Positions 24,611 to 36,103 of a stretch of DNA of 64,000 nt are shown one piece after another. The notes under the pieces are model-generated. The model searched no databases. It was not told the DNA's origin and was given only the letters and a program-made list of their open reading frames with translations. The stretch comes from Camelus dromedarius (lineage: Eukaryota). The stretch is taken from NCBI RefSeq assembly GCF_036321535.1, contig NC_087436.1, forward strand, positions 23,252,001 to 23,316,000. Reading direction: 5' to 3'. Every line of letters begins with the position of its first letter. Position 1 is the stretch's first letter. The position numbers and the translations under genes are program-made.

Positions 24611-24875
24611 GAACATGCTGCCACCTGTCAGCTACGTCATACAAGGTCTGCCACCCTTGCTGACACGGACCTGTTCTTTACCGCTTTACCTCTTGTGCTA
24701 GAAGAGCAGACGTCTGACCCTTTGGGGATGCCACCCTCTCCCCTACTGTTCTCTCCAACTTGGGGCAAACTTTCTCCTACTTCCCAGAGCCTCTCAGAAG
24801 TGGGTGAGGTAGCCTGGCCCTTGGAATCCAGAATCTTTCAGAACCTGGAACTCTTGTGACCTCTCAGGGTCTTCC
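24611..24875 (+). promoter_or_regulatory. UCP1: UCP1 distal brown-fat enhancer
   Basis: Colinear with the recalled eutherian UCP1 enhancer: CRE TACGTCA 24633-24639, URE1/PPRE position 24651-24663, AGAAGAGCAGA, CCCTCTCCCCTACTG, GGCAAACTTTCTCCTACTTCCCAGAG, TGACCT 24857-24862; about 4.3 kb upstream of the TATA box. Confidence 0.88.
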
Positions 24876-27981: not shown

Positions 27982-28959
27982 TACACACAACCTATTCTTA
28001 GGGATGCTTTGACAATTATTCTTATTTTCCCTGCTCCTGGACCAAAAGGAGAAATGAACACTCAAAACAAATCCTTGTATAGGAGCAGAAGTAGGAACAG
28101 CTCCTCCTCCCACAACAAACACACATTACATGGTTTCATTTATAGGTAAGTTAGCACCAGGATTTCATACCTGGGATAGATGTGGAAACACATCCCACTC
28201 GGACGGAAGCAAAGGCCGGAGTACAGATGACCTGCCCAGGGCCACAGAGAAGGGAAGCAGCGGGGCCGCACGTGAGCCAAGCGACCTGCCCCTGTCCTCT
28301 CCTCTGCACGCCCCTGCGCGTGAAATTAAAGGGAGCAAGTGATTATCTCATTTTACATAGTGCTTTAGCCATTTACTACAGATTTGCTTTCTAGTATGTT
28401 TATTATCTCATTTGATATCCTCCTACAAAAAGTATTCAAATGAAACACTTTAAAAGTTCTGAGAGCTCTTGTTTTCTGACTGGGATTTTTTTGCAGTCTG
28501 GTTTTAGTGTTTGAAAGGAGGCAGGAGGAAAAGGGAGTCTAGCTCAAAGGGTGCCTGCAAAGCTTCTGGGGAGCCAGAGAAGTAAGAGGAGCCCCATTCT
28601 TGCCTTGGAGAGCTCCGGCTGGGCGGGACCTTCCACCAGGGTCACTGAGCTCGCGCTTGTTTCAGGGTCTCCCGCCACAGCGCGCCGCGGAAGGTGCCGG
28701 AAGCCTCGGCAGCAGCCGCGCGTGCGCGGGGCGCGGGGCGCGGGGTGCCCGCTGCGATGCGCGCTCCGCGAGGCGCCGACGGCAGGGCGCAGTCGGCCAG
28801 GTACGAGCGCAGCGAGGGCTTTCGAGGTGAAGGGCGGCTCCCCAGGCGCCGAGCGAGGATGGGGAGGTGGGCGGGGCCCGGCGTCCCAGGGCACGCCCCC
28901 GTCAGGCCCACGCCCGGGTCCTTTGAGATCTGGAGCTGCTCAGCCCCCGAGCACCTCGA

Positions 28960-28965
28960 TATAAG
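28960..28965 (+). promoter_or_regulatory. UCP1: TATA box (TATAAG)
   Basis: Only AT-rich motif in the island, 167 nt before the ATG, in the TATAAGTC context recalled for UCP1 promoters. Confidence 0.8.
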
Positions 28966-29126
28966 TCACCCGGGGAGGACAGGGGCACCGAGCGGCCAGC
29001 CTGGGCGCGAGGGAGGGGAGGCCGGCGCCGCCAACTCCTTGCTGCCTCGGCGCGGAGGAGTGAGGAGCCAGGGCGAACTTCCACCTTCGGCGCTGGCACC
29101 GGTGCCTCGCTCCGCGCTGGGTCAGG

Positions 29127-29252
29127 ATGGTGGGGCTGACAGCCTCAGACGTGCCCCCGACCATGGCGGTCAAGATCTTCTCAGCCGGAGTGGCGGCCTG
29201 CGTGGCGGATGTGATCACCTTCCCGCTGGACACGGCCAAAGTCCGGCTACAG
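29127..29252 (+). CDS. UCP1: UCP1 exon 1 (mitochondrial uncoupling protein 1, SLC25A7)
   Basis: AGGATGG Kozak; [47 protein letters not shown]; first Px[DE]xx[KR] carrier motif. Confidence 0.97.
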
Positions 29253-29897
29253 GTAGCGAGCGCGATGGGGATGGAGAGGCAGAGAGCGAACCCCTAGTGT
29301 GTGCGCCTCTTTGATTCTGTCTTTGGTTTAAACATCCTTTCTCACTTTAGGTAGGGCAGGTGGCCACCCTGAAAAAGTTGGACCTGTCACAGGATGGTTG
29401 CGTTAGGGTGGGAAATTGGAATTTTTCCGAAATTAACTGAAGAACCACAGGGTCACCGAGGATGTGTTCACCATGACTGTTGCCAAACTCCCCCAAAGTT
29501 AGGGAGCGCTAAGTGTTCTAAGAGCTAAGGATATCAGCCTCTCCCGAGTTTACAAGCCAAGTTCTTTCTCCTTCCTTCTAATTAGGCGGAAGCACCTTCG
29601 GATCCTACTTCCTTGGGTTTCTGGAAAGTTCATAGGAGTGGGAATGTTCAAACATGCATAGTAGCCAGATTCTCTCTCCTTCCCCTCTTTCTCTCTGGAT
29701 AGATAGAGAGATAGGGGGAGATGATGCTGCGAAGGGAAAAGGAATTGAAAATAGTGAGAAATAATGGGAAAGAATCTTGGCTAACGGTTTCTCTACAGAG
29801 GCTAACCTGATGCCAGTATTTTTTTTTTTTCTCACCAGGTGAGACTCCCTTACTCAATTTTCACTGCCCTCTGACCTGTACCCTTTCTCATTTCCAG

Positions 29898-30096
29898 ATC
29901 CAAGGCGAATGCCAGACCACCCGAGCTGTTAGGTATAAAGTTGTCCTGGGAACAATCACCACTCTGGCAAAAACAGAAGGGCCAGGGAAGCTCTATAGCG
30001 GGCTGCCTGCTGGCCTCCAGAGACAAATAAGCTTCGCCTCTCTTAGGATCGGCCTCTGTGATACCGTCCAGGAGTTCTTCACCACAGGGAAAGAAA
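29898..30096 (+). CDS. UCP1: UCP1 exon 2 (199 nt)
   Basis: tttcc[74 protein letters not shown]. Confidence 0.96.
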
Positions 30097-30754
30097 GTAA
30101 GCAAGCATGGAGCTGTCCTGGGAGGGGCGACAGTCAGAGACTCCTCCGGGACCCAGTTCTGTTAAAAAAAAAAAAAAAGTGGTGCGCACAGAGTAGTGGT
30201 CTTCATAACAGACTGGCAAGCAAACATCAATATTTGAAATTCCTCCTCTACCCCCAAAATACTAGCTTGGTACTCACTGTTCATAGGGAGAGAAAGAAGT
30301 GTTCAAAATCGATTTTTTCAGATGCAGTTTATCACTCACTCAGGTATGGAAGGCTTGGGCCTAATTTGGATATCCATCTGGAGAAGAAGCATACTTTGTG
30401 AAATAATATTTAATTCAAAGTCCCCCCCAAGTGAATTCTGTCAGAAACACCTGCGGAACTTGTTAGACATCCAGATGCTGAGGACTGCCCTGTACCCTGA
30501 ATCTGAATCACTCGGATTAGGCCCGGGGAATCTGTGTTTATCACAAGTTTCCCTGGTAATTTTAGTATGCAACAAATCTGAAAACCTTTGGTTTGAAGAG
30601 AAGAAAACCAGAATTCCCTAACTCCAAACCCTAAGGGCTTATTTCCTTTAAGAAGACTGGGGAAGACCAGAGTAAAAGGAGTGGGCTTAAGTTGTAGTGA
30701 GTTTGTTTAGGGAAAGAAGAAACTGAGTATATACCAAGAGTTCCTGATGGCTTA

Positions 30755-31110
30755 GTTAGCATTTATTTGAGTGCTTACTATAAACCAGATACTGTTCTAA
30801 GTGCCTCAGATACATCATCCCTGCAAAGATTACTATTAATTTTATCCTTTGATAAAACAGGAAGCATAGAGCAGTTTTATAACTTGCCCAAGGTCACACA
30901 GTTGGAAAGGGGCAGAGTGAGAGTTCAAATCCAGGCAGGCTGGCCTCTGACCTCAGCTTTTAACCACAGTACAGTCTTGCCTCCTGCAATTTGCATGTGA
31001 TTCTGTGTGTCACTCAATCCATACAAAAATGCTGTTAGATGCAAAGTGCTGTCCCCATTTTCAGATGGGGAGACTGAGTATCAGAAAAGTTAAGTGAAGA
31101 CCACCCAGCT
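30755..31110 (-). mobile_element. MIR SINE fragments in UCP1 intron 2
   Basis: ATTTATTTGAGTGCTTACTA...AACTTGCCCAAGGTCACACAG. Confidence 0.75.
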
Positions 31111-32421
31111 AGCAAGTATCTGAAACATTTCCATGTAAAGCACACAATCCAGAGAGATGTACAGATGGGGAAGTGAATATGAGTGACTGCCTTGGCAGAT
31201 TTCATCATTTCTGCTTTAAATGACCTTTGGATAACGTAACTTTATGGGACACATTATAATTATTATTTATACCAACAATATAAATTTAAGTTTATCCACA
31301 CTACACTTTCAAAGTAAAGATAAAGTCTGGATGTTTCTAGATCAATACTGCATTTTCTTATTTACAAATGTAGCAAGAGAGGAAGCATAAAGGATGAAAA
31401 GCTGCCTGTTCTGGTGGTATTGTTCACAATTGACTGTTCTAACCAATTGCTGGGGTCTTTCTTTTTCTTCCTTCCTTCCTTCCCCCTTTCCATTCCATTC
31501 CATTCCTTTCCTTCTTTCTTTTTTCAGTTTTATTGAGATATAACTGAGATACAGCACTGTATACATTTAAGGTATATAGCATAATGATTTGACTTACATA
31601 CATCATGAAGTGATTATCACAGTAAATTTAGTTTAAACATCTGTCATATTCCTATTGCAAGACCCTATGTTAAGTGCTGTATTGATATTATTTTAACGCA
31701 CACAATAGATCTGCGAGGTAGACATTATTACCTCTATTATACAGATTAGGAAACAGAATTAGAGAGACTGAGAATGTCCTTGATGTGTAAATGTGATTGA
31801 CCATACTTTAATTATAGGAATGGGTCTTGGACTTCTATTTGAACTTTTACTAAATGGTATCTGTCTTGAGTGACCTAAGCTAATTTTTCAAAATTGCGAA
31901 CAAACAGAAAGATCACTTCATTAGTTTCCTTCTTGTTTTTGTCCCCTTTGTAGCCTGACACCACTTGATGTCCCATATTGGGGCAGGTTGTCCACTTGGG
32001 TTCTTCCTAAGACCCTGAAGTCCAATCATTAACATTCTCATTGATGGGAGGAAGACTGAGCATCCCTGGTGCCTCCTCCCAGTTGGGAAATACTGAAAAA
32101 CAGAGCTAAAGATAAGAAAGAACTGAGCAAAATATAGGAAAGAACTAAGACGCTATTTAAATAGGCAGTGTGTTTTCTTTTCCTTGAAAGCCTTTATTTT
32201 AAAAAATTTCAGTCACCTTTGAAGTCTTCTAGCCCTGCTATGATTTAGTACATGTTTAGTATATGATTGACACGTGTACCAGTATTAGGGAAGTACAGAA
32301 GATACAATGACACAATAATATTAACCACTAAATTAAAAAGACGGTACATTCTGGGTCTTGTTTTTTGTTTTTGTTTTTTCTTTTTTGTTTGACACATCGT
32401 TTTTCTCTCTGATAACAACAG

Positions 32422-32616
32422 CTAGTTTAGGAAGCAAGGTCTCAGCGGGCCTCACAACTGGAGGCGTGGCCGTGTTCACTGGGCAACCCACAGAGGTGGT
32501 GAAGGTCAGACTGCAAGCACAGAGCCATCTCCATGGTCCCAAACCTCGCTACACTGGAACCTACAATGCTTACAGAATTATAGCCACTACAGAAGGCTTG
32601 ACGGGGCTGTGGAAAG
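32422..32616 (+). CDS. UCP1: UCP1 exon 3 (195 nt)
   Basis: aacAG|CT AGT; (T)[73 protein letters not shown]1-diagnostic SHLHG. Confidence 0.94.
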
Positions 32617-32715
32617 GTAACTCACTTCAAGATGCATTTTACCATCTTCAGACACGTGTATCCAACTGGCACCTTATCATATAATGGAGCCATTAAGCAC
32701 TTTCTTTTCTTCCAG

Positions 32716-32817
32716 GGACCACTCCCAATCTGACAAGAAATGTTATCATCAATTGTACAGAGCTAGTGACGTATGACCTGATGAAGGCGGCCCTTGTGAA
32801 AAACAAACTATTAGCAG
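32716..32817 (+). CDS. UCP1: UCP1 exon 4 (102 nt)
   Basis: ttccAG|(G)[39 protein letters not shown]. Confidence 0.96.
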
Positions 32818-33533
32818 GTAACTTTTTTTTTTACACAGCAAGTCAGCACATTTACAGTTTCATCTTGGAGTTTCTCCAGCCATATTATACTGAATCCCTT
32901 AATTGTAATAGTTTTCTTTCTTAAAAAATTAAGTACTTTTGAACAATACAGTATAACTAAAACCCTAAGTTTTAGAAGTTTTGCTGCAACAGTTTTTGGT
33001 TTTGCAACAAAACCAAGAGGCAACTGTATTCTTACATCAGCATTATTCTCATTTAATACTAATAGATGAGATTTCTGTTAGCATCTTATGCTTTATAAAG
33101 CAGAATTCAGGAAGTGAGTCCACCCTACACTAAGTCCAGATGAGCTAGTTACATAAGGAGCTCCTCAGTGGTTTCGGCAAAAAAACAGTACCATTGAATA
33201 GGTTCCTAAAGTTTTTATTCTAACAGGTTCTGTAGACATTGAAATTCTCCTTGGACAATGACTTTAATTCAGTAAAAAAGTATTCGATGTCTATGTATCG
33301 AGCATTATGTCATGCCCTAAGGACACAGGGAAAAGTGACAGGTTATTTTCCTAAAGCACTTACAATGTAAGGTACTTATACTTAACCTTCCTTATTGTAT
33401 TTATTGATAAGACATCTGTGTTGATCTCCTGTTTACAACAGGAGGTTTACAAAGGTTTACAAAGATCTGATAACTGAAAATGAGAAGCTCCTCCCAAAGT
33501 CTGGTGTTGACCTGTTTCATTGGTCCGTTTCAG

Positions 33534-33702
33534 ATGACGTGCCCTGCCACTTTGTGTCCGCTGTTATCGCTGGATTTTGCACAACCGTTCTGTCCTCTCC
33601 AGTGGATGTGGTGAAAACCAGGTTTGTTAACTCTCCACCAAGTGTGCCCAACTGCGCAATGACGATGCTCACTAAGGAAGGACCATCGGCTTTCTTCAAA
33701 GG
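33534..33702 (+). CDS. UCP1: UCP1 exon 5 (169 nt, 12 nt shorter than the usual 181)
   Basis: tttcAG|(D)[62 protein letters not shown]. Confidence 0.96.
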
Positions 33703-34534
33703 GTAGGTCTTCCGCATCTGTAATGCTGTGGTCAGGGTATCTGTGTGCTGCGGGGTGCTGTCTCGTCTAAACAATTGACAATTAGCTGACCAGCCTTAGT
33801 ATGTGCAGTACACTTAGTGTCTACTTTTCCTCGCCATAAATTTCTCCAATCCACCAATTCCACTGTGCCAGAAAATTTAAAGCTGTGATATTAAAATTCT
33901 CCCAGGCTTTGAAGAGGCTCTTTCAAAGCCAGTGACTTCCTCCTTGGTCTTCACCTATCGGAAATGTAGACAGTATTCTGCCTTCCCTGGGCAGAAGTAT
34001 AAAATGGAAGGAAAGCATAATAGAAGGCTATGAGAAAACAAGATTTGATTTTCACTATTTTAATTTAATAGGCCCTGTTTTTTAGATTGTATTCAAGCAA
34101 AACTAGAGAAAAATCATTGTTATTGATCTAGAAAAGCTATGTAGAAAACGATGTAGTTTGGTGATTACACTTACCTAGAAACTACTATCACATAATGGAT
34201 CATATTTTTCCATAAAGCAATATTATATTAATATTATAATCACCTTCTTAAGAAAATATAGTATGAACTAATTTATGGGTATACTCCACAAGGATTACAT
34301 GTGGTAAAATAACAGAATTCTATGAACTTAAAAAATTGTAAGGCAATGCCTCAAACCTTATAAGCATAAATGCATGGCACACATTATACAAGAGCTGCTA
34401 ATTCACCATTTACGACACATTAACACAAATGGAATATATTGTAAAATTAACTGAAAATAGATGTATCAGTTATCAATCAGTAGCCATTTAACAATAATTT
34501 TATTTTTTTCAAATTTAAAAACTTCTGGGGGGAT

Positions 34535-34862
34535 ACATGCTACAAGGGTGTACTCTGAAAATGTTATACTAAACAAAATGAGCCAGATACAGAAGGACAA
34601 ACATTGTTTGAGTCTACATATATGAGGTAAAATTCATAGAAACAGGAAGCGCAGCAGTGGGTACCAGGGGATGAGGGGTGGAGGAGCAGGGAGTTGTTTT
34701 TTAATGTGTGCAGAGATTCCGTTTGGGATGACCAAAGGTTCTGGAGATGGAGAGTGATGATGACTGCTCACAATGAGAACATACTGAATGTGACTGGATT
34801 ATACACTTAAAATGGCTAAAATGATAAATTGATGCTATGTATATTTTACCACAGTTAAAACA
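34535..34862 (+). mobile_element. L1MB-type 3' end in UCP1 intron 5
   Basis: AGCCAGATACAGAAGGACAAA...TTCTGGAGATGGA...TATATTTTACCACA. Confidence 0.8.
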
Positions 34863-35549
34863 CACACAACACACACACATCCAGGAGTCAGGAGAAATGT
34901 TAAGAGAGCTGCCAAAATCTTTGGGGCTGATTTTTATGGGCCAGATTTCTAAAATATCTATACAAGGCAGACTGAACTGATGACATTTTTCTTCTGGAAT
35001 ATTTCATTGCTGTGAACAGGAATTCGAAATCAATCATTAGGCCTGCGCAGTTGGGCAGAATTCTTAAAAATAATAAGAGCAACAACAACAACAAAACGCA
35101 GTTAGATCCTGAGAATCTTAGGACAAGAATCGCCAAGATCTAGACTTGGCATTAATTTCTTGACTCCAGAAAATGGTCCTACGTACTCATCACTTTGCTT
35201 TCTCCTCTTACTTTCTCTTCTAAAGTTTCCTACTTCCCCTTCAGAAAGCAAAGCAAGACACAAAATTTCCTTTTCTCTCAAAAAAGGAGAAAAGATCACG
35301 AAAAAGGAGACAAGCTCTGGTTTGGTGGGACTGTTTGTACTGATGTGATCACCTGGGTATGGTTCTGATGCAGGATAGGGCATCTAGATGAAACTTCATG
35401 TTAGGCAGAGGAGGGAAAGATGAAGAATAGGTACTTCTGAGCATTTGCACTGGAGAAGAGTGGCGAAAGGAGACGCATGAACTGCCGGTACTGTAATAGC
35501 TCTGAGAACTTCATGCAAACTAACGGAATGCTGACATGTACTTTTCCAG

Positions 35550-35664
35550 ATTTGTACCTTCCTTCTGGCGACTCGGATCCTGGAACGTCATTATGTTTGT
35601 GTGCTTTGAACAGCTGAAACGAGAACTGATGAAGTCAAGGCAGACCGTGGACTGTGCCACATAA
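35550..35664 (+). CDS. UCP1: UCP1 exon 6, coding part
   Basis: ttttccAG|(G)[37 protein letters not shown]; spliced CDS 906 nt = 301 aa plus stop. Confidence 0.96.
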
Positions 35665-36103
35665 TCATCTTCAGTGAAGGGATGTAACAGACCAGTGGGC
35701 ATCTTTGCTAACTGCATAACTTTAAAAAGCAAACAAACCTATTGACTTTATTTCACCCTAAAAAGATCAGGGAATTCTGGTAGAGTGTTTTGGACTATTT
35801 TTCTTTTTTTCAAAGGAAAACTAATACCTATTTCTTTTGACTTTTATTCTGTGTTTTAAGGAAGGGAAAGCATACACACTGGCAAATGTAGTATCTAGAT
35901 AAGTTACTGCTAGTGATTGACCATTTTTATGGGAGGGATTTTATAATTGAATATGAAGAACTTTAAAATGTTTTAATTATTAATGCAAACTGATGGAAAA
36001 GAAAAACTGAGTGAGATGCACTTTATAAATACTTAAAAATGAAGTTACCAAAGAAAATATTACTGTCTCCTTTTTAGTAACCCAGTTGTCAGTTAATACA
36101 TTC

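Follow-up and report, generated by a model that had tools for sequence, protein, structure and literature searches.

Our analysis indicates that UCP1 of Camelus is probably in decay although its reading frame is still open, and that the protein has been structurally damaged rather than retuned in its redox control. The camel UCP1 orthologue lacks three structural properties of a working UCP1, namely a repeat-3 loop of normal length, an intact [YF]x[GS] motif before each matrix helix and two tyrosine braces at the cytoplasmic gate. It also lacks the marks of a classical pseudogene, as no stop, frameshift, splice-site or exon loss was found in the dromedary gene analysed.

The window is a stretch of 64,000 nt from the forward strand of Camelus dromedarius (GCF_036321535.1, NC_087436.1, 23,252,001-23,316,000). 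All positions given here are window positions on the + strand, and residues carry human UCP1 numbers throughout. UCP1 lies at 29127-35664, and its best match to UCP1 together with the six-exon layout identifies it as the UCP1 orthologue (SLC25A7). The coding part of exon 1 (29127-29252, 126 nt) is followed by exon 2 (29898-30096, 199 nt), exon 3 (32422-32616, 195 nt), exon 4 (32716-32817, 102 nt), exon 5 (33534-33702, 169 nt) and the coding part of exon 6 up to the TAA (35550-35664). Exon 5 encodes H5, the shortened loop, the matrix helix h56 and the FKG motif. All six exons have canonical AG/GT splice sites, the frame is open over 301 aa, and the spliced product is identical to the dromedary record KAB1282774.1. 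The 64-kb window yielded no further copy of UCP1.

Two further features of the gene models were observed. Exon 3 is two codons shorter than in human, as in the aligned alpaca, sheep and cattle records and unlike the hippopotamus and tapir records. Its acceptor (32410-32422) lies 6 nt downstream of the human-length position, the upstream position reads AA, and where exons 2 and 3 meet two older camel models bridge the missing residues differently. In alpaca and some bovid records exon 1 ends with four extra residues (309 aa; window 29253-29264); this fits models that extend 12 nt into intron 1 and is probably due to annotation or to an alternative donor.

In exon 5 the codons AAC TCT CCA CCA are directly followed by AGT GTG CCC AAC TGC, and P245 (33638-33640) and S250 (33641-33643) are adjacent. 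A preliminary description of the window had placed an in-frame 12-nt deletion of G246-Q247-Y248-x249 in matrix loop 3, with its junction at 33640/33641 in an exon of 169 nt, and the bases, the codons and the AG/GT ends agree with this. The sole gap in exon 5 against human UCP1 (PDB 8G8W, 8HBV) is GQYK, and the alpaca has GQYT at the same place, as expected from the typical GQY(K/T) given there. The ancestral exon length of 181 nt follows by arithmetic (169+12). We rejected a cryptic intron or a displacement of the four codons as an explanation: no displaced or cryptic-intron DNA encoding GQYT was found in the 64-kb window. Among repeats that could explain the break, only 6-nt chance pairs were found within exon 5.

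The deletion was followed across eutherians. With exon 5 as the query, 166 proteins were obtained from 262 candidates (120 listed), and cluster look-ups added members for two large clusters (15/54 and 15/47). In total 123 eutherian rows were collected, of which 121 were aligned after two dog models of more than 600 aa had been dropped; since isoform models are included, the rows are not all independent. Pseudogene-lineage labels were taken in part from PMC5611445. A gap at 243-251 is limited to the five Camelus rows, which represent wild camel, domestic Bactrian and dromedary. Full length at these positions are the alpaca, 105 intact non-camelid rows and 10 pseudogene-lineage rows, and Y248 is present in every one of the 105 intact rows. 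Judged from these protein records, the gap is not a chance feature. As it is found in all five Camelus rows and is absent from alpaca, the deletion arose on the Camelus stem, and this distribution places it after the alpaca split and before the dromedary-Bactrian split. The stem spans roughly 16 to 4-5 million years ago.

An error of the assembly or the annotation is very improbable as the origin of the gap, because the five protein records of three species share it and because of the word content of sequencing runs. All 337 sampled words of 32400-35700 occur in 14 of the 24 runs listed, a measure taken over the stretch as a whole, and 8 run rows are flagged as possible source of the window DNA. 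Two runs recorded as RNA and four guessed to be RNA have a word share of 0.35-0.40, which is word content alone and not evidence of expression. Moreover, the gap has been published from the assemblies of two species. Gaudry et al. 2017 (PMC5507634) described a four-residue UCP1 deletion in C. ferus, and Gaudry and Campbell 2017 (PMC5611445) reported the 12-bp exon-5 deletion also for the dromedary. Hence the deletion is real, was correctly described and is already published, and the preliminary description was right that it had been reported for camels. That description knew of no functional test, and in the mostly non-subscription literature searched we found neither a functional assay of camel UCP1 (fatty-acid-activated, GDP-inhibited proton leak) nor a test of UCP1 expression in camel brown fat, and PMC7970898 and PMC9187634 contained nothing usable on camel brown fat.

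Our reading differs from the Gaudry papers, which describe the same four-residue deletion, in its location relative to the nucleotide site. There, the deletion was set beside a putative GDP-binding domain. Cryo-EM contacts of GTP in the central cavity are K38, R84, Q85, R92, K138, R183, E191, R277 and N282 (PMC10413660), and all nine residues are unchanged in dromedary UCP1. Since GTP is held in the cavity by other residues, the deletion is not at the nucleotide site, and we rejected damage to the GDP site as its effect. The matrix and cytoplasmic salt-bridge networks of the dromedary protein are unchanged as well. In the available parts of the two papers we found Y96C, G57V, I130T, a loop-length limit and a second Bactrian deletion unmentioned.

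The lost Y248 is indeed the repeat-3 counterpart of the carrier [YF]xG motif, as had been proposed (Y55-K-G57, Y154-T-G156, Y248-x-S250). The proposed link to cardiolipin holds in part. The motif lies at the cardiolipin site; the ligand, as described for the ADP/ATP carrier, is bound by backbone atoms at the matrix helix's N-terminus and at the glycine position, not by the aromatic side chain (PMC5988563). In simulations of that carrier the motif aromatic tethers the two ends of the loop (PMC9502086). S250 (33641-33643), which fills the third place of the Y-x-[GS] motif in repeat 3, is retained just N-terminal to h56, and in an AlphaFold model of the camel protein it still directly precedes this helix, so that the glycine position of the cardiolipin motif is kept. 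The model retains all helices, with h56 beginning at V251 as in the tapir control, and the loop between H5 and h56 has 4 residues in place of 8. Local pLDDT is 68-76 instead of 88-93, and mean pLDDT 78.6 instead of 83.2; the rmsd to human 8HBV is 2.8 for the camel model vs 1.7 for the control, where each model is a single run and the compared proteins differ at further sites too. These values only suggest a strain of the loop.

Firmer than the models is a comparison with the natural range of loop lengths. As an anchored measure we used the spacing in repeat 3 between the signature proline and the glycine that precedes H6 (P-to-[YFW][KR]G); a measure based on the motif alone gave values of 15-19 from false anchors and was discarded. 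We scored 154 other carriers, drawn from the best 150 representatives at 50% identity (123 scored) and from the other UCP-like proteins (31/31). The repeat-3 spacing is 34 in camels vs 38 in human, alpaca and all 31 other UCP-like proteins, and the camel value lies below the minimum of 36 among the 154. The measure could be applied to 416 of 543 repeats overall. Outlying spacings all belong to repeat 1, two at 29 and 31, which look like broken gene models, and two at 35. An aromatic near the Y248 position is absent in 9/154 carriers, which counts against a strict need for the tyrosine.

The deletion is accompanied by several substitutions. The cytoplasmic gate has two tyrosine braces, Y96 and Y195 (PMC10413660; also PMC13173328, PMC12410006), and Y96C (30057-30059) is present in all five Camelus records. 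I130T (32478-32480) is likewise found in all Camelus records, the site being I or V in the 91/91 intact rows that cover it. G57V (29940-29942), restricted to the dromedary, removes the glycine of the repeat-1 YxG motif, which is G in 104/105 intact rows, the single exception being a garbled model. With G57V in repeat 1 and Y248 missing from repeat 3, only repeat 2 of the dromedary protein keeps the [YF]x[GS] motif intact. A89P and A255S occur in Bactrian and wild camels, and A24T in the domestic Bactrian. The domestic Bactrian record XP_074234356.1, a single annotation, shows V139I and is short of 8 more residues in exon 5, among them the matrix-gate residues P232 and D234. If this gap (~window 33587-33610) is genuine, it probably marks a null allele in camels. 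The preliminary description had missed Y96C, G57V and I130T and read the deletion as a single tuning change; these changes and the published omega near 1 together point to decay.

Six of the seven Camelus-derived substitutions fall in columns that are at least 90% conserved, which make up 69% of all columns. In the reference, 14 disjoint pairs of intact species, the share is 47/180 differences (Fisher p ~0.002 at thresholds of 90, 95 and 99%; 0.002-0.008 with close relatives removed from the reference), and in 18 overlapping intact pairs it is 59/217. Two garbled models were excluded from the reference. The test is a protein-level proxy with 7 changes, and the 90% threshold was chosen after the data had been seen. 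Within these limits the pattern is neutral-like, as is the published omega of 1.033 for C. ferus vs 0.159 for functional placental branches (p 0.031; PMC5507634).

UCP1 pseudogenes of pig, whale, horse, elephant and sirenians change conserved sites at a similar rate as camels. In the elephant/manatee pair 33/52 differences lie in conserved columns. Of the 10 pseudogene-lineage rows, 8 have a changed G57, seven from whales and one from the manatee, whose valine is also that of the dromedary, and I130T of Camelus recurs in the elephant record. These pseudogenes are described as broken by stops, frameshifts or exon loss, whereas in the camel gene the frame stays open and the splice sites are preserved. 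As a separate observation on this part of the protein, both hippopotamus records carry G60E in a column that is G in 102/104 rows, and hippopotamus newborns have been reported to be without brown fat.

With assumed indel rates, a neutral gene that has gathered 7 missense changes should on expectation have taken 1.1-1.6 frame-breaking hits, so that seeing none (P about 0.2-0.33) is still likely under neutrality. Several observations nevertheless speak against decay. The two exon-5 deletions seen in Camelus both preserve the reading frame, a somewhat unlikely outcome for neutral DNA, and in the dromedary the frame, splice sites, GTP contacts, salt bridges, C254 and promoter elements are all kept. 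The number of private radical changes in the dromedary, four, exceeds that of 75 of the 76 intact full-length rows; the Etruscan shrew has five and the hedgehog three. UCP1 of both the shrew and the hedgehog is regarded as functional.

Upstream of the gene we found the eutherian enhancer core (24715-24782), in which the RARE-3 and PPAR-gamma consensus sequences given in the literature are matched exactly. No match to the URE1 consensus was found in the enhancer region at 2 mismatches. A CpG island (28527-29327; 81 CpG, GC 0.70, o/e 0.85) encloses an artiodactyl-type TATA box (28958) that matches its consensus exactly. Several UCP1 pseudogenes also retain enhancers (PMC5611445).

With the regulatory core, the frame and the splice sites preserved, the protein might instead be weakened yet used, the deletion being tolerated as the S250 helix cap and the nucleotide site survive under weak purifying selection. 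We consider this possible, at rather less than even chances. The retained fold of the model and the GTP contacts fit such a protein, as do the binding of cardiolipin through backbone atoms, the carriers that manage with no aromatic at this place, and two observed indels that are both in frame. The changes on conserved columns at a rate expected with no selection, the omega of 1.03, a spacing under the minimum of the sampled family and the missing P232 and D234 of one Bactrian record all speak against it.

The deletion ends five residues before C254 (mouse Cys253; 33653-33655), which has been reported to be oxidised in thermogenesis (PMC7245117). The closeness noted in the preliminary description is thus correct; C254 itself is intact, as in 105/105 intact rows, and nothing points to altered redox control. 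An adaptive retuning in desert camels, with altered gating, stability or redox control through C254, appears improbable to us. It would draw on the position of the deletion, on the clustering of the lesions on gate and cardiolipin motifs and on a sweep scan of Kazakh Bactrian camels that names UCP1 in one of its windows (PMC13564503), a listing that also counts to some degree against decay; moreover, an omega near 1 can be a mixture of positive and purifying selection. Yet the dromedary and Bactrian lineages alter different sites with no common direction, two of the changes recur in known pseudogene lineages, no finding bears on the reactivity of C254, and the sweep listing, in the available text, is one gene in a window.

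From the deletion, its distribution and the companion changes at conserved sites we infer a loss of activity and an order of events for the favoured explanation, a gene decaying behind its open frame. The deletion halves the loop between H5 and h56 and removes the tyrosine that would tie its ends. Domain 3 and the cardiolipin tether may thereby be strained, leaving a protein that is less stable or unable to cycle between its states. On the same stem, Y96C would have taken away one of the two braces of the cytoplasmic gate. Selection would then largely have lapsed, and each camel lineage gained more hits at conserved sites. The expected phenotype would be little or no proton leak activated by fatty acids.

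Human UCP1 (8G8W, 8HBV; SLC25A7) is the best match to the camel protein in sequence and structure. Both share the arginine triplet, the gate networks, Y195 and C254, while the camel protein is without residues 246-249, Y96 and, in the dromedary, G57, has two residues fewer where exons 2 and 3 join and carries L276W. This last change (35566-35568), adjoining the nucleotide-binding R277, is common to alpaca and all camels and was found in 0/97 intact rows. L276W is older than the deletion, because the alpaca has it too, and alpaca UCP1 may itself be altered. The alpaca protein (XP_031548092.1), from the nearest relative seen, also has the short exon 3 and is 5 substitutions away from the dromedary. 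As it retains GQYT, Y96, G57 and I130, it provides a natural control for camel UCP1.

As only five substitutions and one deletion separate the camel and alpaca proteins, nature supplies at little cost a set of mutants with which to study the tyrosine of loop 3, the brace Y96 and the glycine of the cardiolipin motif; the roles of these residues in UCP1 are deduced from structures. Should camel UCP1, against long odds, still be made and selected as a re-geared carrier, the shortest matrix loop sampled, a single tyrosine brace and the damage to two of the dromedary's cardiolipin motifs would alter its gating and make it leakier, less stable or less sensitive to redox state. Such a carrier would suit a swinging body temperature and be a natural probe of proton conduction by UCP1.

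The deletion was published eight years ago, and what our data add is a sharper case for a hidden loss of UCP1. Comparative studies count camel UCP1 as intact, and the sweep study (PMC13564503) lists it as selected. Camels may represent one more lineage in which brown-fat thermogenesis was lost independently, concealed behind an open frame.
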